From positions 990 through 64,989 of the forward strand of contig JAFGCQ010000004.1 of assembly GCA_016932555.1 (NCBI GenBank): a stretch of DNA of 64,000 bases. The letters run 5' to 3'. Shown one piece after another: positions 4,923 through 61,705 of this stretch. Position 1 is the stretch's first letter, and every line of letters begins with the position of its first letter. This DNA is from Candidatus Zambryskiibacteriota bacterium (GTDB taxonomy: Bacteria; Patescibacteriota; Minisyncoccia; Phycocordibacterales; WO2-35-19). The notes below the pieces were generated by a model, which was not told the DNA's origin, searched no databases, and saw only the letters and a program-made list of their open reading frames with translations. Position numbers and translations under genes: made by a program.

Positions 4923-5597
4923 TTAAATAAGATAAAACTCTTTAAAGACCGCTTCATAGAGGGAGATGATGCGGCGAATTTCACGCTGATTGACCAAAAA
5001 ATCGTTGCCTTCGTGAGCAATCTTATTGCGCGCTTTATGAGCTTCCCAGGCTAAGTCTATGGTTACAAAATCGCTTTTTTCTACAACTTTCATTTTGTCT
5101 GCCATTGTGTCACCTGGCAGTTTAAGTTTTTCCAAGAGTTCATCAAGCATGATATCAGCTTCTATGATAGCAAGTCTCCAATCTGAAGAGTTTTCTGATT
5201 CTGAAAGTTTTACAATTCTTTCCCATTTTTCATTTTTTTTATCTTTACTTGAACTTTCCATTGGAATATTTGCTAGCATATCTGATGGATAAACTTTAGC
5301 TCTTTCTTCCCGTGAGATTCGATTCCATTTCTGGGTGAATACATAAGCAGCAAACATAGCAAAAAGAGCAATAATTAAACTAAGGATTTTCCACCAAAAA
5401 GCAGTGGATTTAAAGAAAGCTATTATACCAACTAGTTTAATACCATAAAAAGAAATTTCTCCAGAAATAAAATAATTTATGATATTTGGCACTATAGCGC
5501 CGACAATAGCGGTCAAAAATAAAAGTACTACCGTCATTTCTACAGCATCAAAATTCCAACCCTCTAACCAACTCTCTGATTCTTTGTCATTATTCAT
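4923..5597 (-). CDS. Membrane-anchored protein with a C-terminal DUF4145/HEPN-like domain
   Basis: Three N-terminal TM helices. The C-terminal region GDTMADKMKVV...LAWEAHKARNKIAHEGNDF fits the DUF4145/HEPN Rx4H signature. Confidence 0.5.
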   Translation of the reverse strand: MNNDKESESWLEGWNFDAVEMTVVLLFLTAIVGAIVPNIINYFISGEISFYGIKLVGIIAFFKSTAFWWKILSLIIALFAMFAAYVFTQKWNRISREERAKVYPSDMLANIPMESSSKDKKNEKWERIVKLSESENSSDWRLAIIEADIMLDELLEKLKLPGDTMADKMKVVEKSDFVTIDLAWEAHKARNKIAHEGNDFLVNQREIRRIISLYEAVFKEFYLI

Positions 5598-5609
5598 ATT
5601 TTAAAATTA

Positions 5610-31806: not shown

Positions 31807-32142
31807 CTATAGTTTTTTATCTTTTAACATTTTCGCCACTGCTATCAGTAAAATTTTTTCATCATCGTCAAATTGGCTATATCTCTCTTTGATTGTTTCT
31901 TCAATAGCAGTTGAGAGAGAAATAGGTTCATCACTCATGAGTTCTGTCAGATCACCCTCAATAATATTAATCTTATTGCAATTACCAAGTTGGCAAAATT
32001 TTTCAGGACGAAGATTAAATTGCCCCTCAGGATTACCGTAAGGACAATTTGAACCATCTACCCAACACTTTTGCTGTTCGTTACACTTGAGTTGTTGAAC
32101 AAAACTCAAAGACAATAAATGTTCCTTAATACTTGATTCCAT
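31807..32142 (-). CDS. Small cysteine-rich protein, hypothetical. It occupies the position normally held by rplA after rplK.
   Basis: 111 aa with six Cys (CxxxxxC ... CxxxxC). GGAGG RBS upstream. Confidence 0.4.
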   Translation of the reverse strand: MESSIKEHLLSLSFVQQLKCNEQQKCWVDGSNCPYGNPEGQFNLRPEKFCQLGNCNKINIIEGDLTELMSDEPISLSTAIEETIKERYSQFDDDEKILLIAVAKMLKDKKL

Positions 32143-32306
32143 GAGAAACCTCCAATGAAAATAAAGATCAAAATTCCTTTTAAATTTTTAGCATACTACC
32201 CAAAAAACAAAAAGACTTGTAGAAAAGTCTTTTTGTTTTGTAATTTATTTTTGTTTTTCCCCTCTCCTGCATCTAGAGGAGGGCAACTTGTGAAGCAAGT
32301 GGGAGG

Positions 32307-32726
32307 TTATCGCACTTCCACTCCCATACTCCTACATTGTCCAGCAATGATCTCTATGGCAGCATCGATGTTATTAGCGTTAAGATCTGGCATTTTAATT
32401 TGAGCTATTTCTTCAAGTTGTTTTCTGGTGATAGTGCCCACCTTTTGAGCTGGCGTTTTGCCAGCACCCTTTTCCAGACCTAAAGCTTTTTTAATAAGAC
32501 TTGAAGCTGGTGGAGTTTTTAATATGAAATCAAAAGTTCGATCTTCATAAACATTAAGTTCAGCCGGAACTAGACCTTCCATATTTTTGGTAGCTTCATT
32601 AAATTTAGTGATAAATTCACCGATATTGATACCAGCCGGACCCAAAGCTGTACCCACCGGCGGAGCCGGCGTAGCTTTTTTTGCTTCTATTACCAACTTT
32701 ATTTTTTTAACTACTTTCTTTGCCAT
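32307..32726 (-). CDS. rplK: 50S ribosomal protein L11
   Basis: [17 protein letters not shown]11 signature. Confidence 0.9.
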
Positions 32727-43460: not shown

Positions 43461-43481
43461 AGCCCCCGCCGAGGCGGGGGC
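43461..43481 (-). terminator. GC-rich hairpin (GCCCCCGCC-GAG-GCGGGGGC) between rpsJ and rplC. Terminator/attenuator-like.
   Basis: 9-bp G/C stem immediately after the rpsJ stop on the minus strand. Confidence 0.5.
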
Positions 43482-43488
43482 TTAAGAG

Positions 43489-53095: not shown

Positions 53096-54535
53096 CTAGA
53101 GTAAATCATAAGATTTTTCCTCCTTCGGATATACTGCATCAACATTCAAATAATCTTTAATGCGCTGGACTAAGAAAAGTGAAGATTTCGGCTCGCCCAT
53201 TATAACAAATACGCGCTTAAGTTTACTCTTTTTCTCCCTCTCCTTCGCAAAGAGAGAGCTACGTGTAGTGAGGGATGAGGTCGCTACCTTTTCTACAAAC
53301 TCCAGCAAATGCTCTGAGTCTTTGTGTGATGAATAACCAGTGATATTTTCTATGGTAGCCCTGACTTTCACTGCTTCTTTTTTCTTATTACCACCAGTGT
53401 TAATAAAAACTTTTTTTACTCCATCCTGTAGTGCTCTGCCCAAAGACCCGATAGATTGATAACCCACTAGAATAATTGTCGCTTTAGGATCAGGCAAATA
53501 ATTTGCCTCATGATTTACAATTCTACCCCCTTCCGACATGCCTGAACCGGCCATGATTATTTTAGTTCCTTCAGTTTTTTCTATTTCTTTGGATTCTTCA
53601 AAATTTTTAATAATTTTTAACCCAGGAAAATTAAAAATGTTATCACCTTGTTTAATTTCTTTTTGGATTAAATCTTTGAAATCAGAGGAATATTTTTGAT
53701 AAATAGCAGTTACCTTTTCAGCTAAAGGTGAGTCCAAAAATACCGGCACTTTGGCAATTTTTCCACCCTCTATCATCTCATTAAGTTCATAGAGTAAAAC
53801 TTGAGTTCTTTCTATGGAAAAAGCCGGTATAATAATCGCACCGCCTTTCTTTATACCTTCTTCTAGAGCTCTTTTAAATTTTTTTCTTCTGTCTTTTTTG
53901 TTTTCATGATTCCTATCGCCATAGACACTTTCCATAACAAGATAATCAACTTCTTTGGGAAATTCAGTATCAGGTAAAAGTAGTGATGGTGAATTACCTA
54001 AATCTCCAGTGAATGTTATTTTTGTTTTTGAAATCGTAACACTCAAAATAGCCGAACCTAAAATATGCCCGGCATTTTGCATTTCTAAAAAACAATCATC
54101 AAAAAGTTTTATCTTCTCTCCATATTTTTTACCTTCCCAAAAAGCAAAACTTCTTTCAATATCATTTTCATTAAAAAGTTCTTGTTTAGGGTATTTTGAA
54201 CGCATAACTTTAAGCGCATCTTGAAGCATGAGCTTCGCTAATTCCATTGTTTCTTTGGTAGAAATTATTTTGCCTTTGAAACCTTCCTTCACTAATTTTG
54301 GAATTCTACCAATATGGTCCATATGGGCATGGGTGATAAGTAAGAAATTTATACCTATCGGATTGTATTTAAAGGGTTTAAAATTTTTATCCTCGGCATA
54401 TTTTGTTCCTTGAAAAAGACCGCAATCAATCAGAATTTTTCTTTGATTGCATTCTAGCATTATATTAGCACCAGTAGTAGAACCTACGCCGCCAAAAAAT
54501 CTAAGTTTTTGGTCATCATTCATATTTTTCTTCAA
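53096..54535 (-). CDS. MBL-fold beta-CASP family RNA-metabolising metallo-hydrolase (RNase J/CPSF-like)
   Basis: HAHMDHIG metal-binding motif and beta-CASP C-terminal region. 479 aa. Confidence 0.7.
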   Translation of the reverse strand: MKKNMNDDQKLRFFGGVGSTTGANIMLECNQRKILIDCGLFQGTKYAEDKNFKPFKYNPIGINFLLITHAHMDHIGRIPKLVKEGFKGKIISTKETMELAKLMLQDALKVMRSKYPKQELFNENDIERSFAFWEGKKYGEKIKLFDDCFLEMQNAGHILGSAILSVTISKTKITFTGDLGNSPSLLLPDTEFPKEVDYLVMESVYGDRNHENKKDRRKKFKRALEEGIKKGGAIIIPAFSIERTQVLLYELNEMIEGGKIAKVPVFLDSPLAEKVTAIYQKYSSDFKDLIQKEIKQGDNIFNFPGLKIIKNFEESKEIEKTEGTKIIMAGSGMSEGGRIVNHEANYLPDPKATIILVGYQSIGSLGRALQDGVKKVFINTGGNKKKEAVKVRATIENITGYSSHKDSEHLLEFVEKVATSSLTTRSSLFAKEREKKSKLKRVFVIMGEPKSSLFLVQRIKDYLNVDAVYPKEEKSYDLL

Positions 54536-54956
54536 CTTTATAATTTTCTAACTTGAATCTTTTTAACTCTTTTATATAAGCGTAAAAACACATAACAGTT
54601 GCTCCTAATACACCCATAATAAGATCCAGAACGGTATCAAAAGGATATTTAGGGCCAAGCATTACAGCTTCTCCGATTACTAATTCGTAAATTTCCCACA
54701 TTAAAGCTACAGCTACTAAACCCAAGATAGAAATTTTTAAAAATTCTATTAAATTTCTTTTTTTTGGTTTAAAAAGCTCCGTAAAGAAATATAACAAAAG
54801 AGAAAGAGCGCCTAAAGCAGTTCCAGCTAAAAAATGAACTAAGCTATCAAATTCCCAAACTGTCCAATAGAGATCATAATGATAAGCTATCTGATTTAAA
54901 ATCCCCACCAGAGCAAATAAAACAAACATTTCCCTAAAAAGCGGTTTATTTATCAT
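54516..54956 (-). CDS. Integral membrane protein, hypothetical
   Basis: 146 aa with four TM helices. Confidence 0.4.
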   Translation of the reverse strand: MINKPLFREMFVLFALVGILNQIAYHYDLYWTVWEFDSLVHFLAGTALGALSLLLYFFTELFKPKKRNLIEFLKISILGLVAVALMWEIYELVIGEAVMLGPKYPFDTVLDLIMGVLGATVMCFYAYIKELKRFKLENYKVEEKYE

Positions 54957-55194
54957 TTAATAATATAATATCATAAAAACTTAAAATCCCATTTAAAAGC
55001 GCTCGCCGCAAAGGCAAAGCGCTTTTGTAGGATTGTTTGTGATTATTCCCTAATTGCAAAAATTAAGGTGGGTGACCTCAATTGTATTGATTAGTTCTCG
55101 ATTGTTATCGAGCATCACCTCTTTACAAAGATATTGGTCTCCCTAAAAAAGTTCAAACTAGAAAATATCCAAACAATCCTACTTTAATTATACT

Positions 55195-55803
55195 CTATTC
55201 CAGTATTCCATCCAAGTTTACATCATACAAAATCTGTTCGGCAATTAAACGATAATTTACAAGCTCATTTTCCTTAAACCAAAGTTTTATCTCTTTATTT
55301 GCCTCCTCAGTCGAACCAGAAGCGTGTATCAAGTTGCGAACTGCCCGACCATCAGTGTCAGACACTATATATGAATCCAAAACAAAGTCTCCACGAATAG
55401 TGCCCACATCTGAAGTTCGGGGTTCTGTTCCACCAGTTACTTTACGCACCACTTCCACCGCGTGCGCCCCTTGCCAAACTAGCGCTACCACCGGACCTGA
55501 AGTCATATATTTAATTAAAGTTTCCAAAACTCTGTTTCCAGCTTCTATTGGGTTTTTTAAAGGGGGCTCTATGCCCTTTTTTTGATAGCTAGCGATAGCT
55601 TTTTCACCAGCTTTTTTTTGCCATTCCGGATCAACCGTGTAGTGTTTTCTTACAAAACTTGCATCAGGAACAACCATTTTTATCGCAATCATTTTTAAAC
55701 CCATCTTTTCATACCTTTTAATAATTTCGCCAATAAGGGATCTTTGTACACCATCGGGCTTTATAATTACTAGCGTTCTCTCTTTACTTGGATGATTATT
55801 CAT
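55195..55803 (-). CDS. ndk: Nucleoside-diphosphate kinase (long form, 202 aa)
   Basis: LVIIKPDGVQR, NLIHASGS (active-site His). Insertions relative to the canonical 140-aa enzyme. Confidence 0.75.
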   Translation of the reverse strand: MNNHPSKERTLVIIKPDGVQRSLIGEIIKRYEKMGLKMIAIKMVVPDASFVRKHYTVDPEWQKKAGEKAIASYQKKGIEPPLKNPIEAGNRVLETLIKYMTSGPVVALVWQGAHAVEVVRKVTGGTEPRTSDVGTIRGDFVLDSYIVSDTDGRAVRNLIHASGSTEEANKEIKLWFKENELVNYRLIAEQILYDVNLDGILE

Positions 55804-55838
55804 GATTCTAATGACTCTAAAATTTTTAATTTTTAAAA

Positions 55839-56633
55839 CTATCTTGTCAAAACTTCTATTCCATTCTTTGTAACCGCTACTGTATGCTCAAAATGAGCAG
55901 AAAGAGATTTATCACGAGTAATAAAGGTATAGCCATCAGAGAGACGCTTGATTTCACGACTACCTAAAGAAAACATCGGCTCAATAGCAATAACTAGCCC
56001 TTCTCTAAGTTCCGGCCCTTCGCCCCTCTCGGCTCGATTGGGTACATACGGTTCTTCATGGACACTATAACCTACCCCGTGACCTGACAAGCCTTCTATT
56101 ATGCCCAAATTGTATTTCATAGCCACTTGCATAATAGCCGCCCCAATATCACCTATATGGCCACCGATTTGCATAGTGTTAATGCCTTTTTCTAAAGCTT
56201 CATAAGTCGCTCTAATGAGAGTCGCGGCATCATCGCTAATTTTACCAACTGGTACAGTAATGGCTGCGTCAGTAATCATGGGTCTTACTTGTGGTGAACC
56301 AGTCAAACTATAAGTAAAACCCATATCCAAAGAAACGATATCTCCTTCAAATAAAATCCGATTGCCGTCATGATTTGGAATACCGTGAACAATTTCTTCA
56401 TTTATGGAAACACAAAGCGAGGCCGGGTAGGGTTTTGAAGCATCATCAGATTGATAGCCAAAAAAAGAGCCGACGCCACCCGCTTCATCGATAAGTTTTT
56501 CGGCGTAATCATTAAGCTCTTGAGTTTTAACCCCTGCTTTAACTTTTTGGGCCACTTTTTTTAAAATCTTCGCGTGAATCTTACCTCCTTCCCGCATCAC
56601 TGCTATTTCTTCTTCTGTTTTGTATTTGATCAT
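55839..56633 (-). CDS. map: Type I methionine aminopeptidase
   Basis: Pita-bread-fold metal ligand pattern. 264 aa. Confidence 0.85.
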   Translation of the reverse strand: MIKYKTEEEIAVMREGGKIHAKILKKVAQKVKAGVKTQELNDYAEKLIDEAGGVGSFFGYQSDDASKPYPASLCVSINEEIVHGIPNHDGNRILFEGDIVSLDMGFTYSLTGSPQVRPMITDAAITVPVGKISDDAATLIRATYEALEKGINTMQIGGHIGDIGAAIMQVAMKYNLGIIEGLSGHGVGYSVHEEPYVPNRAERGEGPELREGLVIAIEPMFSLGSREIKRLSDGYTFITRDKSLSAHFEHTVAVTKNGIEVLTR

Positions 56634-57220
56634 AATCCAATTTTGCTTATTATCTCTTTATGAACTTCATCGATTGTTTGTTCGCCGTTTATTTCTATAA
56701 ATTTATAATAGTGATTGTTTTTGAGATATTCCACAGTTGGTAAAACTTTTTCTTTAAACCAATCTAGCCTGTTTTTTATATCTTCTTCATTGTCATCAGT
56801 CCTGCCTCTATCTTTCATTAGCTTGGTAACCCATTCATTTGAAGCATTTATCGAAATAACCATTGGGTTCTCTCTTTCATAAAATTTTAAAGCATCACTC
56901 AGTATATACGCTTCACCAAGTTTACGAGGTGTACCATCAAAGAAAATAGTCACATCTGGAGAAAGCTCTTCAACCAAGCGCTTAGTCCAAATGTAGATAG
57001 GCATAAACTCAGGAACTAATTCACCCTGATCTAAAATTTTTTTGACTCTTTGGGATGTGAAAGATTGGGTTTGGGTAAGTTTTCTAAATCCTTCCCCAGT
57101 TTCTATATAGATAATTTTTTGCTCAGGATATTTTTTCTTAATTTCTTCCTGTAGGAGCTTAGCTTGGGTACCCTTACCGCAACCAGATGGCCCTAAAAAT
57201 ATGAAAGTTTGCGGTTGCAT
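56630..57220 (-). CDS. adk: Adenylate kinase
   Basis: P-loop GPSGCGKGTQ. The start is chosen at the ATG matching the conserved N-terminus (MQPQTFIFLGPSG). Confidence 0.8.
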   Translation of the reverse strand: MQPQTFIFLGPSGCGKGTQAKLLQEEIKKKYPEQKIIYIETGEGFRKLTQTQSFTSQRVKKILDQGELVPEFMPIYIWTKRLVEELSPDVTIFFDGTPRKLGEAYILSDALKFYERENPMVISINASNEWVTKLMKDRGRTDDNEEDIKNRLDWFKEKVLPTVEYLKNNHYYKFIEINGEQTIDEVHKEIISKIGL

Positions 57221-57264
57221 GAAATAAGTATAACATAAATCCCCCACTCGGGACTAGTCCTCGA

Positions 57265-57285
57265 CCTCCCCTTGATCAGGGGAGG
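57265..57285. repeat. GC-rich hairpin element hp1 (CCTCCCC-TTGATCA-GGGGAGG)
   Basis: Same stem/loop family as 57680-57702, 58407-58429 and about 32262-32287. Preceded by a GGACTAGTCC palindrome. Confidence 0.7.
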
Positions 57286-57305
57286 CAATGCGCGATAATT
57301 AGGAA

Positions 57306-57656
57306 ATGACAAGAGTTCATAATATCCGCAAACTTTCAGATCGCAGGAAAGAATTACGAAAAAACCAAACAAAAACCGAAGAAAAACTCTGGTGGTATTT
57401 GAAAGATAAGAGGCTGGGAATTAAATTCAGAAGACAGCACAGTATAGGAGGATATATTTTAGATTTTATATGCAAAGAAAAGAAATTGATTATAGAAATT
57501 GATGGTAGAGTACATTTGAAAAAAGATAATAAAGAATACGATAAAGTTAGAGACAAATATTTTGAAGAGTTAAATTATAAAGTTCTGAGATTTACGAATG
57601 ATGAGGTTGAAAATGGGGTTAAAGAGATTATTGATGTTATAAAGCGGTATCTTTAA
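57306..57656 (+). CDS. DUF559-domain endonuclease-like protein (Vsr/PD-(D/E)XK-related)
   Basis: LWWYLKDKRL ... RRQHSIGGYILDFIC ... IIEIDGRVH ... D..R...L...GYKVLRF pattern typical of DUF559. Confidence 0.65.
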   Translation: MTRVHNIRKLSDRRKELRKNQTKTEEKLWWYLKDKRLGIKFRRQHSIGGYILDFICKEKKLIIEIDGRVHLKKDNKEYDKVRDKYFEELNYKVLRFTNDEVENGVKEIIDVIKRYL

Positions 57657-57657
57657 C

Positions 57658-57702
57658 CCCCACCCCTCAATTCGTGTAGCCCTTCTCTTGATCAGGGGAG
57701 GG
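57658..57702. repeat. Left terminal inverted repeat (26 bp, CCCCACCCCTCAATTCGTGTAGCCCT) plus hairpin hp2 (CCCTTCTC-TTGATCA-GGGGAGGG)
   Basis: 25 of 26 positions match the reverse complement of 58426-58451. It begins 1 nt after the DUF559 stop codon. Confidence 0.8.
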
Positions 57703-57721
57703 AAAACCAAAATCATACAAA

Positions 57722-57748
57722 AAGAAAACCGCCATTCAGCGGTTTTCG
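57722..57748. terminator. Bidirectional terminator (AACCGC-CATTCA-GCGGTT with flanking A/T runs)
   Basis: Lies between the convergent DUF559 gene and ORF 57771-58322. Confidence 0.6.
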
Positions 57749-57770
57749 GTTGAAAATCATTGAAGAGCGA

Positions 57771-58322
57771 TTATATCAAAATCCTCCCATTATACTCATG
57801 GAACCCGATTTCTCCACTGGTAGCCGTGAAAAAAATATGCTCCATTCCAGCAAAATTTTCGAATCCGCCCCCGAGAAAAATAGTGTTTTCATACTTAAGA
57901 AGGTTTTTATCATAGTTTCCTACACGAGTATCATTATAAAAACCGTGTGTAGCTAAACCTCGTCCACCATGGAATTCACGTTGTTTGTAGGCGTAATTAA
58001 GCGCCATTTTCAAAAAACTGATCACTTCCTTAGGATAACATCCAGAATAAGACATCCACCACACGGCCATCCATCTTCCTCTGGGTCTGAACCTATAAAA
58101 GATAGTGGTTGTACCGGCGGAAAAATCTGAAAGCGGTGTCACACAATAGTGATCTACCACTTTGTAGTTACCGGATACAAAAGTGATTCTTTTGTATCCG
58201 CTAGATTCTATGACTTTAACAGAATTCTTTTTGTTTCCAGCATATCCGTCAAGCATAGCATCGAAGAATACTTTTTCTGCTTTTTGAATGATTTTCTTTC
58301 TCTGTTTGGACTCTAGTTCCAC
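57771..58322 (-). CDS. Hypothetical protein carried on a TIR-bounded cassette. GC-richer than the host genes.
   Basis: 183-aa ORF at about 42 percent GC against a background of about 33 percent. No recognisable motif. Confidence 0.45.
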   Translation of the reverse strand: MELESKQRKKIIQKAEKVFFDAMLDGYAGNKKNSVKVIESSGYKRITFVSGNYKVVDHYCVTPLSDFSAGTTTIFYRFRPRGRWMAVWWMSYSGCYPKEVISFLKMALNYAYKQREFHGGRGLATHGFYNDTRVGNYDKNLLKYENTIFLGGGFENFAGMEHIFFTATSGEIGFHEYNGRILI

Positions 58323-58406
58323 TGTTGGCTCCTTTCACCCATTAGGTCTGACTCAGGTTATACAACAATATAAAAATTAAAGCAAGAATAAAAAATACCG
58401 CGCGTT

Positions 58407-58451
58407 CCCTCCCCCGTCCAGGGGGAGGGCTACACGAAGTGAGGGGTGGGG
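58407..58451. repeat. Hairpin hp3 (CCCTCCCCC-GTCCA-GGGGGAGGG) plus right terminal inverted repeat (26 bp)
   Basis: The reverse complement of 58426-58451 is CCCCACCCCTCACTTCGTGTAGCCCT. It ends 1 nt before the secY stop codon. On the minus strand the hairpin plus a T run also serves as the secY terminator. Confidence 0.8.
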
Positions 58452-58452
58452 A

Positions 58453-59724
58453 TTAATATTCTCTTGCAGAGATTTGAGCATCAACTTTTTTAACGAGATC
58501 AAGAACCACTGAAACTACGATAAGAAGTCCTGTACCGCCTATAGCCACTGCGCTGATACCAGTAGCCGCCCTTACTATTAAAGGCAAAACAGCAATTAAT
58601 CCCAAGAAAATAGCGCCAATCATGGTTAAACGGGAAAGGATTTTGGCTATATATGAGGAAGTCGAGGAACCGGGTCGAACTCCCGGAATAAAAGCACCGC
58701 CTCTCTGTAAATTTTTGGAAAGATTCTCCGGATCAAAAGTAATAGCTGTGTAGAAATAAGTAAAAACAAAAACTAATAAGAAGTAGGCAATGCCATAAAA
58801 AATCTGGTTAGAAAGCAAAGCAAGTAGAAATTCAGAAATCTTTTGGATTATAGTATTGTCTACATTAGCTAAAAAGCGGATTATCATTTGAGGAAAAAGT
58901 AATATGGAAAGAGCAAAAATTATAGGAATCACCCCAGCTTGATTAACTCTTAAAGGTAAATAAGTGGAAACTCCACCATACATTTTATTACCTCTAACTT
59001 GTTTAGCGTAAGTTATCGGTATGGGTCTTTCTGCTTCAGTAATAACTACTACACCCCAAATCACTGCTATGGCAGCCGCCAGAAAGCCAATATACATCGG
59101 CAATTGAGATGGATCAAAAGCAAATAAAAGCTGGCTAGTCGCACTGGGTAAAATAGCAACAATGCCGGCAAAAATGATAAGCGAGACTCCGTTACCAATA
59201 CCAAATTCAGATACTAACTCACCAAGCCACATAAGAAGCATTGAACCGGCAGCAATTACTATAAGATTTGTTAGCAATTCAAAACCAGCAAGTTTACTTA
59301 AAACATTCTGATTTTGAAGAAGAATAATAAAAGCATAACCTTGCATTAAAGCTAGAGGCACAGTCAAAAATCTTGAATATTGAGAAAATTTTCTGCGTCC
59401 TAATTCACCCTCTTCTTGATACATAGCCTTGAGTTTAGGAAACATAACAGTCATAAGCTGCATAATAATAGAAGCGGTAATATATGGCGACACACCGAGC
59501 ATAATAATTGAAAGATTAGACAAACCACCACCCGAAAAGATATTTAAAAGTCCAAAGAAATCATTATCAGACATAAACTGCTCTAATTTAAAAGTATCAA
59601 TACCGGGAATTGGGATAGAGGCCATCAAACGGAAGAGAGCCAACATTACAAGGGTAAAAATTATTCTCTTTCTTAAATTTTTATCCCCTAAGACTAATTT
59701 TATTTTGTGAATAAAATTTTGCAT
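58453..59724 (-). CDS. secY: Preprotein translocase subunit SecY
   Basis: 10-TM SecY pattern. 423 aa. Confidence 0.9.
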   Translation of the reverse strand: MQNFIHKIKLVLGDKNLRKRIIFTLVMLALFRLMASIPIPGIDTFKLEQFMSDNDFFGLLNIFSGGGLSNLSIIMLGVSPYITASIIMQLMTVMFPKLKAMYQEEGELGRRKFSQYSRFLTVPLALMQGYAFIILLQNQNVLSKLAGFELLTNLIVIAAGSMLLMWLGELVSEFGIGNGVSLIIFAGIVAILPSATSQLLFAFDPSQLPMYIGFLAAAIAVIWGVVVITEAERPIPITYAKQVRGNKMYGGVSTYLPLRVNQAGVIPIIFALSILLFPQMIIRFLANVDNTIIQKISEFLLALLSNQIFYGIAYFLLVFVFTYFYTAITFDPENLSKNLQRGGAFIPGVRPGSSTSSYIAKILSRLTMIGAIFLGLIAVLPLIVRAATGISAVAIGGTGLLIVVSVVLDLVKKVDAQISAREY

Positions 59725-59729
59725 TCAAT

Positions 59730-60149
59730 TTATTTGCTTAAATTTTTGACCTTTTTTGAAGTTTCAATATTTTCAAAAATAAAGTTTTTCTTTATTTCTT
59801 TATCAGCTAAAATTTTTGCTTTCGGAATTCGGCCGTTCTTTTTATTTATAATACCTTTTTCTAACAAAACTTGATGATTTATCTTATCTCCTGCAGAAAA
59901 ATTTTTATCTAAAATGGAAAGCTTTATTGGCATAGCTTTTTCAAGTCGAGACTTAAGAAAATTTTTACCTCGACCTCTTAATTTTGGTAATTTTTTAATT
60001 ATATCACGCATTTCTGGTCTTTTTTTCCTGCCGGCCCTGGCATTTTGGCCTTTGGTGCCGCGACCAGAAGTCTTGCCGCGTTTACCCCCCCGACCAATTT
60101 TTTTGGCTTTCCGATTAGTTCTATTTTTTTTTAAATTATGGAATTGCAT
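59730..60149 (-). CDS. rplO: 50S ribosomal protein L15
   Basis: GRGGKRGKTSGRGTKGQ glycine/arginine-rich N-terminus. Confidence 0.85.
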   Translation of the reverse strand: MQFHNLKKNRTNRKAKKIGRGGKRGKTSGRGTKGQNARAGRKKRPEMRDIIKKLPKLRGRGKNFLKSRLEKAMPIKLSILDKNFSAGDKINHQVLLEKGIINKKNGRIPKAKILADKEIKKNFIFENIETSKKVKNLSK

Positions 60150-61153: not shown

Positions 61154-61705
61154 TTAAACTGTTTTCTTACCTTGTTTTCTTCTTATAATTTCATTCTCAT
61201 AACGAAAACCCTTGCCTTTATAAGGTTCCGGTTTTTTTAAGCTTCTTACTTTGGCAGTAAAAGCTCCGACTAACTCTTTATCAAAACCAAATATAGTAAT
61301 GAGATTCTTTTCAGCTTTTACTTCCAAGCCGTCAGGGATTAGAACTTCTACCGGATGGGAAAAACCCAGAGAAAGAATCAACTTATTGCCTGCCTGCGCA
61401 GGCAGGCCATTAACTTGGGATTTAAAACCTACGCCTTCTAATACTAATTTTTTTTCAAAACCATCATTAACTCCTTTTATCATGTTTTTTATATGAGAGG
61501 CATAAGTACCCCATAGAGCCTTAGTTTGATTATTTTCTTTGGGTATAGAAAGATTGATATGATTTTCTTCAATTTTAATTACTACATCATCACGAAATTT
61601 TCTTTCCAATAAACCTTTTGGACCTTTCACAAAAAAAACGTTATCTTTTAAGGAGACTTCTGTACCTGGTAGTATCTTTATTTCTTTTTTACCTATTCTT
61701 GACAT
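61154..61705 (-). CDS. rplF: 50S ribosomal protein L6
   Basis: Two L6 repeats, LSLGFSHPV. Contains an inserted LPAQAG palindrome. Confidence 0.9.
61389..61406. repeat. GC-rich perfect palindrome CCTGCCTGCGCAGGCAGG, copy 3. In-frame inside rplF, encodes LPAQAG.
   Basis: Identical to 1432-1449. The coding strand shares the 20-mer GGCCTGCCTGCGCAGGCAGG with the metzincin gene. Confidence 0.85.

Follow-up and report, generated by a model that had tools for sequence, protein, structure and literature searches.

A DUF559 endonuclease gene bracketed by inverted compound repeats at the secY–adk junction of a Candidatus Zambryskibacteria contig, with related elements at other loci

The DNA analysed here (the window, a stretch of 64 kb in all) belongs to a Candidatus Zambryskibacteria contig, whose host is presumably a tiny groundwater-type bacterium. 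Its secY and adk genes are separated by about 1.2 kb, which contain the gene for a DUF559 endonuclease, a convergent gene of the DUF5680 family and copies of a compound repeat of about 60 nt. Two diverged copies of the repeat occur elsewhere in the window, and a covariance model recognises five units altogether. The features are as follows.

57221–57237, minus strand: remnant of the region upstream of adk, with a conserved TATACT box 6–7 nt before the ATG.
57238–57297, plus strand: repeat unit R1, outer left arm (covariance model 58.7 bits, E = 5e-13).
57306–57656, plus strand: DUF559 endonuclease gene (Vsr/EDxHD-type PD-(D/E)XK), 116 aa (Pfam PF04480, E = 9.5e-34).
57654–57713, plus strand: repeat unit R2, an extra solo unit directly after the TAA stop codon of DUF559 (61.7 bits).
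57724–57747, unstranded: predicted terminator hairpin between the convergent genes, called on the minus strand as a 10-bp stem followed by TTTTTG.
57771–58322, minus strand: DUF5680-family gene, 183 aa, with a GTG start and an AAAGGAG Shine-Dalgarno sequence (homologues with PF18931).
58323–58395, minus strand: DUF5680 leader with a promoter-like TTGCTT-17-TATAAC, read from the sequence and conserved in contigs L085 and L004.
58396–58455, minus strand: repeat unit R3, outer right arm (63.4 bits, E = 4e-14).
53225–53284, minus strand: diverged unit, in frame, in a beta-CASP (RNase J-like) gene (28.2 bits, E = 1.8e-5).
32249–32310, minus strand: diverged solo unit after rplK (24.6 bits, E = 1.3e-4).

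Four parts make up each unit: the head (CCCCACCC), hairpin A (variable), the GC hairpin B (CCYCCCC/GGGGRGG) and the tail ((G/A)AAYGYGCG). Since hairpin A differs in register and length among the units aligned with MAFFT, it was left out of the covariance model and assessed instead by counting hairpins against shuffled sequences. R1 has the head CCCCCAC, a hairpin A of GGGAC/GTCC, the hairpin B CCTCCCC-TTGATCA-GGGGAGG and the tail CAATGCGCGATAATT. Aligned from position 57238, it matches the right arm of the element on contig L085 with 80% identity. R3, the head of which begins 1 nt past the TAA stop codon of secY and the tail of which is AACGCGCGGTA, matches the L164 element in its right arm with 88% identity, and the fold of R3 has a z-score of −1.95. 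The B hairpins of R1 and R3 (hp1, 57265–57285, and hp3, 58407–58429) are both perfect, as originally described. That of R2 (hp2) does have the TTGATCA loop in common with hp1, but the hairpin itself is imperfect: two C-to-T changes lead to G:T pairs, and it folds weakly. The proposal that hp3 doubles as the intrinsic terminator of secY fails, since the T-run begins only about 12 nt past the stem and the terminator scan did not call it.

The initial annotation, made from the sequence alone, had noticed a 26-nt inverted repeat at 57658–57683 and 58426–58451. It stands, with 25 of 26 positions identical and none expected from 100 shuffles, and it is part of a longer inverted repeat of 52 nt with 85% identity (57653–57704 and 58405–58456). 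R2 comprises the left copy of this repeat together with hp2, and the repeats do lie within 1 nt of the stop codons of DUF559 and secY. A third, more diverged copy, R1, holds hp1 (59 bits, compared with 62 and 63 for the other two). The hairpin reported near rplK is a real but diverged family member that begins directly at the TAA stop codon of that gene. The unit in the beta-CASP gene adds 16 residues relative to the L001 protein and 20 relative to that of L003, and a blastn comparison of L003 with the window leaves a gap at 53225–53285. For 13 of 21 units, a TAA ends no more than 4 nt before the head, as against 12.6% of random positions. Dispersed and structured, the rplK member included, the hairpins form a REP/MITE-like family, as had been suggested.

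The DUF559 gene, correctly recognised from the start, scores 116 bits with the PF04480 profile (cutoff 20.6) and covers positions 3–106 of its 109. With NCBIfam PRK09767 it reaches 78 bits against an equivalog cutoff of 218, so that it is not an orthologue of E. coli YcjD. Among solved structures, 3hrl comes closest (E = 6.5e-17), and the catalytic core aligns with it. The catalytic motif, D (..ILDF..) followed by E-x-D-G-x-x-H, is intact in seven element-borne copies and invariant in the eight sequences aligned. The dN/dS ratio of 0.06–0.13 indicates that the gene is under purifying selection. Among the element-borne copies compared, DUF559 identity is independent of the insertion site. A promoter-like pair lies inside R1, where the loop of hairpin B provides the −35-like TTGATC and the tail the −10-like GATAAT; the promoter scan places it at 57272–57299 with a 16-nt spacer. 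The DUF559 transcript is probably leaderless. The same layout, with the promoter embedded in the unit, occurs in L085, L164, L211 and L213.

The 183-aa ORF is present where it had been annotated, but its description as unknown no longer holds, because its homologues place it in the DUF5680 family. Its own score with PF18931 is 22.3 bits (gathering cutoff 25), and eight of nine homologues (45–59% identity, E down to 1e-46) carry this annotation; a profile built from the homologues retrieved 1193 cluster representatives. Structure prediction had been recommended for this protein, and the AlphaFold2 model has a pLDDT of 91, but gave no informative fold match. As to function, there was no match in NCBIfam, PHROG or PADLOC, no sequence match in the PDB and nothing in BFVD. 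The gene is oriented with the spc operon. Its GC content, once given as about 42%, is 38.8%, which is not anomalous and gives no support to a foreign origin: the window as a whole has 35.1% and map, a neighbouring gene, 41.5%, and windows of equal size are at least as GC-rich as the ORF in 15% of cases. The leader region is conserved, with 58365–58436 aligning to L085 and 58367–58428 to L004 in blastn. One flank of the hairpin at 57724–57747 is rich in A and the other in T, and we read these runs as a terminator that may serve both directions; an equivalent hairpin lies between both genes in L085 and L004. In such an arrangement, the repeat unit would supply the DUF559 promoter, DUF5680 would have its own, and both genes would share the terminator.

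That something has been inserted between secY and adk is confirmed by two comparisons. An independent Logan assembly (SRR13394437) is 100% identical to the window over 54806–60018 (5.2 kb, including both junctions). In the closely related syntenic contigs L001, L005, L008 and L061, the insert is absent, and the secY–adk spacer measures only 7–193 nt. Target-site duplication was also looked for, as had been proposed, but nothing convincing emerged: the outer ends show no direct repeat in the window, L085, L164, L211 or L213, and the TTAA palindromes next to R2 and R3 fall on the stop codons. Upstream of adk, GTTATACT is conserved in the window and L001, and adk probably has its own promoter and a leaderless transcript. 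The element may therefore have landed in a permissive spot, adk being served by its own promoter and the secY–adk junction being variable across Parcubacteria.

The initial annotation had divided the insert into a 794-bp cassette with a single gene and a separate DUF559 gene. This division is contradicted by L085, L004 and a JGI contig, in which DUF5680 and DUF559 lie convergently within one inverted pair of units, with none between them. In blastn, the window element aligns collinearly with that of L085 over its whole length, and the homology ends at the heads of the outer units. Since the two-gene block of L085 and L004 has no internal repeat and the window is collinear with L085, R2 is a solo unit. 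It represents an insertion relative to L085; the intergenic gap in L085 and L004 is only about 47 nt plus the terminator. Judged by these alignments, the insert forms a single, discrete element with two genes (57238–58455), made of the DUF559 gene, the convergent DUF5680 gene and inverted copies of the compound repeat, and R1 and R3 are its true outer ends.

Five different junctions in Parcubacteria have a DUF559 gene between inverted units:

secY/adk: the window.
ruvB/yebC: L085, L164 and L211, and the JGI contig by gene order alone.
trxB/ftsZ: L209.
p103/tig: L213.
After a DUF378 gene: L004.

Bracketing on both sides was found in all eight CPR loci for which the sequence was examined. The convergent pair of DUF5680 and DUF559 occurs in four contigs at three loci. 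DUF559 is also found without DUF5680, alone in L164, L211 and L213 and with an HTH gene in L209, and DUF5680 without DUF559 in L001, L002, L003 and L086. Because each gene occurs alone, an obligate pair is rejected. In L001, L002 and L003, DUF5680 is a resident gene at a distance of about 4.5 kb, with neither repeats nor DUF559; by this distribution, it is a facultative passenger of the element. The bracketed block changes location between related genomes: it lies at secY/adk in the window, and the collinear element of L085 at ruvB/yebC. Presence and absence are reciprocal, the window being full at secY/adk and empty at p103/tig, where L213 is occupied.

Further units occur in L003, L006, L009, L011 and L213. 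Inverted doublets were met in L151 and, free of ORFs, in L006. No clean empty doublet fit to be a homing target was found; the doublet of L006 encloses about 200 nt of other sequence. Within a single element, the arms often belong to different unit subtypes, a mosaic that fits recombination among units and not simple cut-and-paste. The element was correctly said to lack a transposase, as there is none among its ORFs. DUF559 has been grouped with Vsr and the EDxHD homing endonuclease I-Bth0305I (PMC3424549, PMC9403480). The earlier suggestion that it is a candidate homing or mobility nuclease is supported.

The repeat family extends to metagenomes. Contigs were selected with a motif consisting of hairpin B plus tail, which matched more than 120 of them. 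The head, which was not part of the selection, is present in 78 of 118 non-identical copies, compared with 5 of 121 control windows. Of the long spacers, 88% form a hairpin with a stem of 4 bp or more, compared with 20% of shuffled ones, and hairpin B shows compensatory changes. Additional copies of the exact 26-nt terminal repeat, sought in GTDB species genomes at the earlier suggestion, were absent there. In the window, L006 and 17 motif loci, no Rfam family matched the repeat, whether at the gathering score or with a permissive E-value; within the window, only tRNAs reach the gathering score, and the rest are at chance level (E > 0.3).

Within 400 nt of the motif, DUF559 occurs at 5 of 120 pattern-selected loci (GC 37–70%) and at none of 80 secY-centred loci. 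This share of about 4% fits a REP/RAYT-like ratio but also a looser association. Apart from DUF559, which is the sole recurring nuclease or mobility-type gene beside the motif, the unit neighbours comprise 160 Pfam families; no transposase appears among those listed for 150 unit-adjacent ORFs. Units face the gene tail-first in the CPR loci and head-first in some high-GC loci. On these counts, the association of units with DUF559 reaches beyond one lineage; a literature search found no paper describing it.

That DUF559 and the repeats form a discrete mobile module is probable. How it would move can be proposed from the sequence comparisons. In a first step, DUF559 would nick or cut unit DNA presented as a hairpin, a doublet or a mismatch-containing stem. 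Repair of the break, or recombination between units, would then copy the gene-bearing doublet elsewhere, into other unit-bearing or TAA-proximal intergenic sites, which would amount to a homing-like spread. Solo and paired units would persist as non-autonomous relatives. DUF559, and not a RAYT tyrosine transposase, would be the gene bracketed by the REP/REPIN-like dispersed units. Since strand transfer is beyond a PD-(D/E)XK nuclease, the element would rely on host repair in order to move.

Taken together, the idea of a REP/RAYT-like selfish module that has a PD-(D/E)XK nuclease, is transcriptionally self-contained and spreads via repair is the one we favour, with some reserve. That DUF559 itself is the enzyme responsible for mobility is a tentative proposition on which we lean slightly towards doubt. 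A still wider reading seems unlikely on balance: DUF559 would be the dedicated partner enzyme of the repeat family (head CCCC(A/T)CC, covarying hairpin A, GC hairpin B, tail AAYGYGCG), in a second, RAYT-independent REP/REPIN-type system across about 35–70% GC that spreads the repeats and its own gene via host break repair. If it were true, a nuclease system could carry passengers and place repeats in-frame inside genes.

The most serious competitor, although improbable, holds that the units are REP-like sequences of the host (terminators, mRNA stabilisers or promoters) spread by an unlinked RAYT/IS200-type enzyme or by recombination, with DUF559 as a bystander, a Vsr-like nuclease of the repair or restriction type that sits between units because, for instance, one of them provides its promoter. 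Like classical REPs, the units lie mostly just downstream of the stop codons of housekeeping genes, and DUF559 is missing from the surroundings of 95% of the motif-selected loci. HUH single-strand transposases typically insert 3' of a short fixed sequence and leave no target-site duplication, and Caulobacter has a DUF559 protein, VsrA, with the role of a chromosomal Vsr-like nuclease (PMC12907096). However, a bystander is hard to reconcile with a gene that is bracketed on both sides in every CPR locus examined and in several distant lineages too, or with the relocation of the whole bracketed block between related genomes. The unlinked enzyme has no counterpart either among the Pfam families listed for the 150 unit-adjacent ORFs, where a Y1/HUH transposase is missing.

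A 794-bp MITE-like cassette running from R2 to R3, with the 183-aa gene only, mobilised in trans by a transposase and lying beside an independent DUF559 gene, is less probable still. It would account for R2 and R3 being the most similar pair of units (85% over 52 nt, 25 of 26 in the head and hairpin-A part) and for the lack of a transposase inside, and the solo units and the ORF-free doublet show that units exist without DUF559. It conflicts, however, with the single outer arms that enclose both genes without an internal repeat in L085, L004 and the JGI contig, and with the collinearity of the window and L085 across both genes, which makes R2 an insertion. Moreover, DUF5680 has no flanking units where DUF559 is missing (L001, L002 and L003), and no DUF5680-only cassette of the R2/R3 type was found. 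The earlier idea of a toxin/immunity or anti-phage defence pair with incidental repeats is very unlikely. The convergent pair does recur, and DUF559 has weak PADLOC matches to HEase (E = 9e-4) and DpdF (E = 3e-3), but either gene occurs without the other, the two are convergent with separate promoters and not an operon, and neither PADLOC nor the predicted fold points to such a role for DUF5680. An assembly chimera made by the repeats, conceivable for a repeat-bounded insert in a metagenome-assembled contig, is practically excluded by the identical Logan assembly and because the longest exact run common to the repeats, 13 nt, is too short to mislead the assembler.

To our knowledge, DUF559 is among the commonest "endonuclease domain-containing protein" annotations and has almost no assigned biology; likewise, we know of no mobilising enzyme for REP-like repeats without a RAYT. 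For the CGTC class, the absence of such an enzyme was stated explicitly by Di Nocera et al. (PMC3733652). If the link between a structured repeat and DUF559 proves reproducible, both would gain a function open to testing. Such a link would explain the frequent mis-annotated N-terminal extensions of DUF559 and its neighbouring genes, as in L213, where the clpP call runs over a unit, and it would reveal a type of mobile element that can persist in tiny, IS-poor CPR genomes. The unit model can be used for masking and annotating repeats and for finding insertion hot spots such as secY/adk.

Several known systems resemble the favoured DUF559-plus-repeat module in part. IS200/IS605 elements and PATEs as direct relatives were rejected, the arms being inverted and the element containing neither TnpA nor TnpB; an Rfam hit to IS605-orfB-I in L006 is sub-threshold (16 bits, cutoff 94). 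An integron attC site was likewise dismissed: the tail GGGAAC and its complement GTTCCC are unlike the RYYYAAC/GTTRRRY cores, and no integrase is present among the examined window ORFs. With MITEs and PATEs, the element has in common terminal inverted repeats without an internal transposase, small size, hairpin-forming ends and TAA-adjacent insertion. In contrast to them, it shows no target-site duplication, which speaks against a MITE, no matching autonomous IS was found, its functional genes appear to be under purifying selection, and its arms are mosaics of unit subtypes. The unit at 53225–53284 in the beta-CASP gene recalls the Rickettsia palindromic elements (RPEs) and intragenic REPs, which are also in-frame palindromic insertions in conserved coding genes, although it belongs to a different sequence family and is a single intragenic case.

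Free-standing homing endonuclease genes (I-Bth0305I, Taylor 2011, PDB 3r3p; T4 seg/mob) also place a nuclease of the Vsr/DUF559 superfamily between conserved genes, have their own promoter, do without a recombinase and vary in presence among close relatives, as the element does between the window and L001, L005, L008 and L061 at secY/adk and between L213 and the window at p103/tig. Homing genes have one cognate site, whereas the element occupies several unrelated loci and is always bracketed by repeats; moreover, its DUF559 protein lacks the extra DNA-binding domains of I-Bth0305I. The closest likeness is to REPtrons and TIRtrons (Nunvar 2010; Bertels & Rainey 2011; Di Nocera 2013, PMC3733652). 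Membership in the REP/REPIN–RAYT class itself was rejected: REPtrons carry an HUH/Y1 transposase (RAYT, TnpA_REP) and a conserved GTAG or CGTC tag, whereas the element has a PD-(D/E)XK DUF559 nuclease in place of the RAYT and a compound unit without a conserved tag; of the subtypes in unit alignment A3, only R2/R3 and L211_L have GTAG in front of hairpin B. It also differs in that a second, passenger gene is possible and that units occur in CPR-like contigs of about 35% GC as well as in contigs of 60–70% GC. What both have in common are short, structured palindromic repeats, single or in inverted doublets, that are dispersed mainly downstream of genes, an enzyme gene of small size enclosed by inverted copies, and repeats that outnumber the enzyme genes in the DNA sampled.

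The host, named from the database record of an identical 183-aa protein, is Candidatus Zambryskibacteria bacterium (Parcubacteria, CPR), and the window has an overall GC content of 35.1%. The tail of the spc operon runs rplO, secY, adk, map, ndk, and secY is separated from adk by some 1.2 kb of additional DNA. The features of this region are:

56630-57220, minus strand: adk, beyond the extra DNA
57238-57297: R1, repeat unit, left end of the element
57306-57656: DUF559 gene (Pfam E 9.5e-34)
57654-57713: R2, solo repeat unit after the DUF559 stop
57724-57747: terminator between R2 and DUF5680
57771-58322: ORF of the 183-aa protein (DUF5680)
58396-58455: R3, repeat unit, right end of the element
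58453-59724, minus strand: secY, next after rplO
59730-60149, minus strand: rplO

L001, a contig of a relative, is collinear with the window between nusA and rplO, where the two share 64-78% nucleotide identity, but its secY-adk spacer comprises only 139 nt of unrelated sequence. A TATACT box 6-7 nt 5' of the adk ATG is kept in L001; given this conservation, adk probably has its own promoter, with the insert present or absent. Of 80 loci centred on secY in species-representative genomes, 58 allowed placement of both genes, giving 59 Parcubacteria-type loci with L001. The spacer measures at most 203 nt in 45 of them and at least 325 nt (325-3651 nt) in 14. These large spacers carry diverse unrelated genes, including antisense cmk-like kinases (L010, L011, L015, L080), gmk (L042), a histidine phosphatase (L047), an MNT/HEPN pair (L065) and an HTH gene, and none of them contains DUF559 or DUF5680. 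In Parcubacteria this junction is therefore variable and permissive, a place where gene insertions concentrate, and the DUF559/DUF5680 cargo is specific to the window genome. An assembly artefact is ruled out, since run SRR13394437, assembled independently by Logan, matches the window at 100% identity over 54806-60018.

The repeat unit has a C-rich head (CCCCACCC), followed by hairpin A, which is short and varies in sequence, then by the GC hairpin B (CCYCCCC/GGGGRGG) and the tail (G/A)AAYGYGCG. Hairpin B reaches 95% pairing across the aligned CPR units and shows compensatory changes. A covariance model built from 18 CPR units finds five copies in the window: three at the secY/adk locus and the first two below, which are listed with solo units from other loci:

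32249-32310: copy starting exactly at the rplK TAA stop
53225-53284, minus strand: diverged copy, in frame in a beta-CASP/RNase J-like gene (53096-54535)
L009: solo unit after secY
L003: solo unit after adk
L213, 4235-4298: solo unit in the tig/clpP spacer

The rplK copy is the hairpin that the initial annotation had already assigned to the family. The beta-CASP copy lengthens the protein by 16 residues compared with L001 and by 20 compared with L003 (within ..TSSLTTRSSLFAKEREKKS..), resembling the behaviour of Rickettsia palindromic elements. L011 and L003 show weaker matches between secY and adk, and an ORF-free inverted doublet directly follows the secY stop in L006. In 13 of 21 units the head is preceded by a TAA that ends no more than 4 nt away, compared with 12.6% for random positions; frequently this TAA terminates the upstream gene. 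There is no evident target-site duplication.

Several local details accompany these copies. The L006 doublet (H43-bin056 Patescibacteria; 5273-5603, secY-adk spacer) encloses about 200 nt, including, on the strand opposite secY, a near-consensus promoter (TTGACA-17-TAAAAT), about 100 nt and an intrinsic terminator; this interior, which has no Rfam match, is a candidate small RNA or remnant of lost cargo. In L213, the clpP ORF as called runs across the solo unit. In the window, rplA does not follow rplK; downstream (32143-32306), the unit is succeeded by a terminator-like hairpin seen by eye, with A and T runs on its flanks (about 32205-32240), and then by an ORF of 111 aa, Cys-rich and without Pfam match (31807-32142, minus strand). 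Two further perfect GC-rich hairpins at 43461-43482 (AGCCCCCGCCGAGGCGGGGGCT) and 61388-61407 (GCCTGCCTGCGCAGGCAGGC) are not matched by the covariance model.

The 183-aa protein is assigned to DUF5680 through its homologues, which share 45-59% identity with it and carry PF18931. In the relatives L001, L002 and L003, DUF5680 lies between rny and the beta-CASP gene, about 4.5 kb from adk, with no GC hairpins or DUF559 beside it, and the window has nothing at this site. In three other contigs it is convergent with DUF559 exactly as in the window: after a DUF378 gene in L004, between yebC and ruvB in L085, and in a JGI contig with yebC/ruvB order (protein and gene-order level only). Clean inverted arms, each some 60 nt long, flank the L085 pair (CCCCACCCGGACTGRCGTCTCGACCTCCCC-loop-GGGGAGGCAATGYGCGRTAWTT), whose genes are not separated by a repeat. 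The window aligns with L085 in four collinear blocks from 57238 to about 58436, the homology ending at the arm heads, and R2, directly 3' of the DUF559 stop codon, is an insertion relative to L085. On this comparison, the true element runs from R1 to R3, in the order R1, DUF559, solo R2, terminator, DUF5680, R3. In hairpin B of R2 (57680-57702), two C-to-T changes in the 5' arm relative to R3 turn G:C into G:T pairs, which is notable next to a gene of the T:G-mismatch (Vsr) superfamily and could be coincidence.

The observation behind the initial annotation is confirmed: both ORFs, the three GC hairpins and the inverted repeat of 26 nt (identical at 25/26 positions; 100 shuffles gave no match by chance) are present, although the repeat truly extends over 52 nt at 85%. 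Its interpretation is partly supported. A REP/MITE-like family and a mobile cassette stand, but the boundaries were misplaced: the left repeat, taken for a cassette end, belongs to the inserted R2, and DUF559 lies inside the element. The GC content of the 183-aa ORF, given there as about 42%, is 38.8%, inside the normal range of the window (map, 41.5%; 15% of equal-sized windows reach or exceed the ORF). The third hairpin, read as the secY intrinsic terminator, has no T-run close behind it, and a terminator scan makes no call there.

Inverted units also bracket close homologues of DUF559 (61-80% identity) at four further Parcubacteria loci:

L164: ruvB on the left, DUF559 only, yebC on the right
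L211: ruvB (plus a 108-aa ORF) on the left, DUF559 only, yebC on the right
L213: p103 on the left, DUF559 only, tig on the right
L209: trxB on the left, DUF559 and a Cro/C1-type HTH gene, ftsZ on the right

Within these elements DUF559 is the constant partner, and the second gene is optional. The p103/tig junction of the window is empty, and DUF559 identity does not track the insertion site. DUF559, the Vsr nickase and the homing endonuclease I-Bth0305I form one superfamily (PMC3424549, PMC9403480). The catalytic D/ExD..H core is intact, with dN/dS of 0.06-0.13. The DUF559-adjacent unit contains a promoter-like pair, a -35-like TTGATC in the hairpin-B loop and a -10-like GATAAT in the tail, 7 nt before the DUF559 ATG; other CPR copies share this layout.

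Scanning metagenome contigs for hairpin B plus tail yielded at least 120 stretches, mostly of 60-70% GC. The C-rich head, which was not in the search pattern, lies upstream in 78 of the 118 distinct copies listed, against 5 of 121 controls; among the copies listed, long spacers of unrelated sequence contain a perfect hairpin of at least 4 bp in 88%, against 20% when shuffled. Adjoining genes represent 160 Pfam families, with no transposase among those listed. DUF559 occurs within 400 nt of the motif in five of the 120 metagenome loci listed (L164, L151, L165, L089, L142) and in none of the 80 secY loci. In L089, L142 and L151, inverted units or doublets bracket the gene, and in the high-GC loci the unit heads, not the tails, face it. 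The high-GC contigs L142 (655-1654) and L089 carry tandem DUF559 genes, each within inverted units; gene callers would stretch these ORFs across the units, giving artificial N-terminal extensions.

A discrete element with conserved ends thus occupies different loci in related genomes; its nuclease gene is under purifying selection and bracketed by the unit in every case, and the unit is dispersed as solos, a doublet and an intragenic copy. The element contains no recombinase. The mechanism proposed is that DUF559 would cut unit DNA, and host repair or recombination between units would then copy the gene-bearing doublet to new unit-bearing or TAA-proximal sites. The arm subtypes are mosaic, which fits recombination among units: CACTTCGTG, for example, is common to R2/R3 and to L213, there as the right arm, and GGCTTTTCAGCC forms the left arm in L164 and the right arm in L211. 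On the 64 kb of the host genome that is visible, the main rival explanation may equally apply: the units would be moved by an enzyme encoded elsewhere, with DUF559 as a bystander.

No Rfam family matches the unit, and no paper describing its association with DUF559 was found. The REP consensus sequences surveyed by Di Nocera et al. differ from the unit, and that survey notes some REP classes without known transposase (PMC3733652). The closest likeness is to a REPtron, in which REP/REPIN repeats accompany a RAYT transposase gene (HUH/Y1 tyrosine transposase), with a PD-(D/E)XK nuclease in place of the RAYT; as the element lacks the transposase and the tag that define REPtrons, it falls outside that family.
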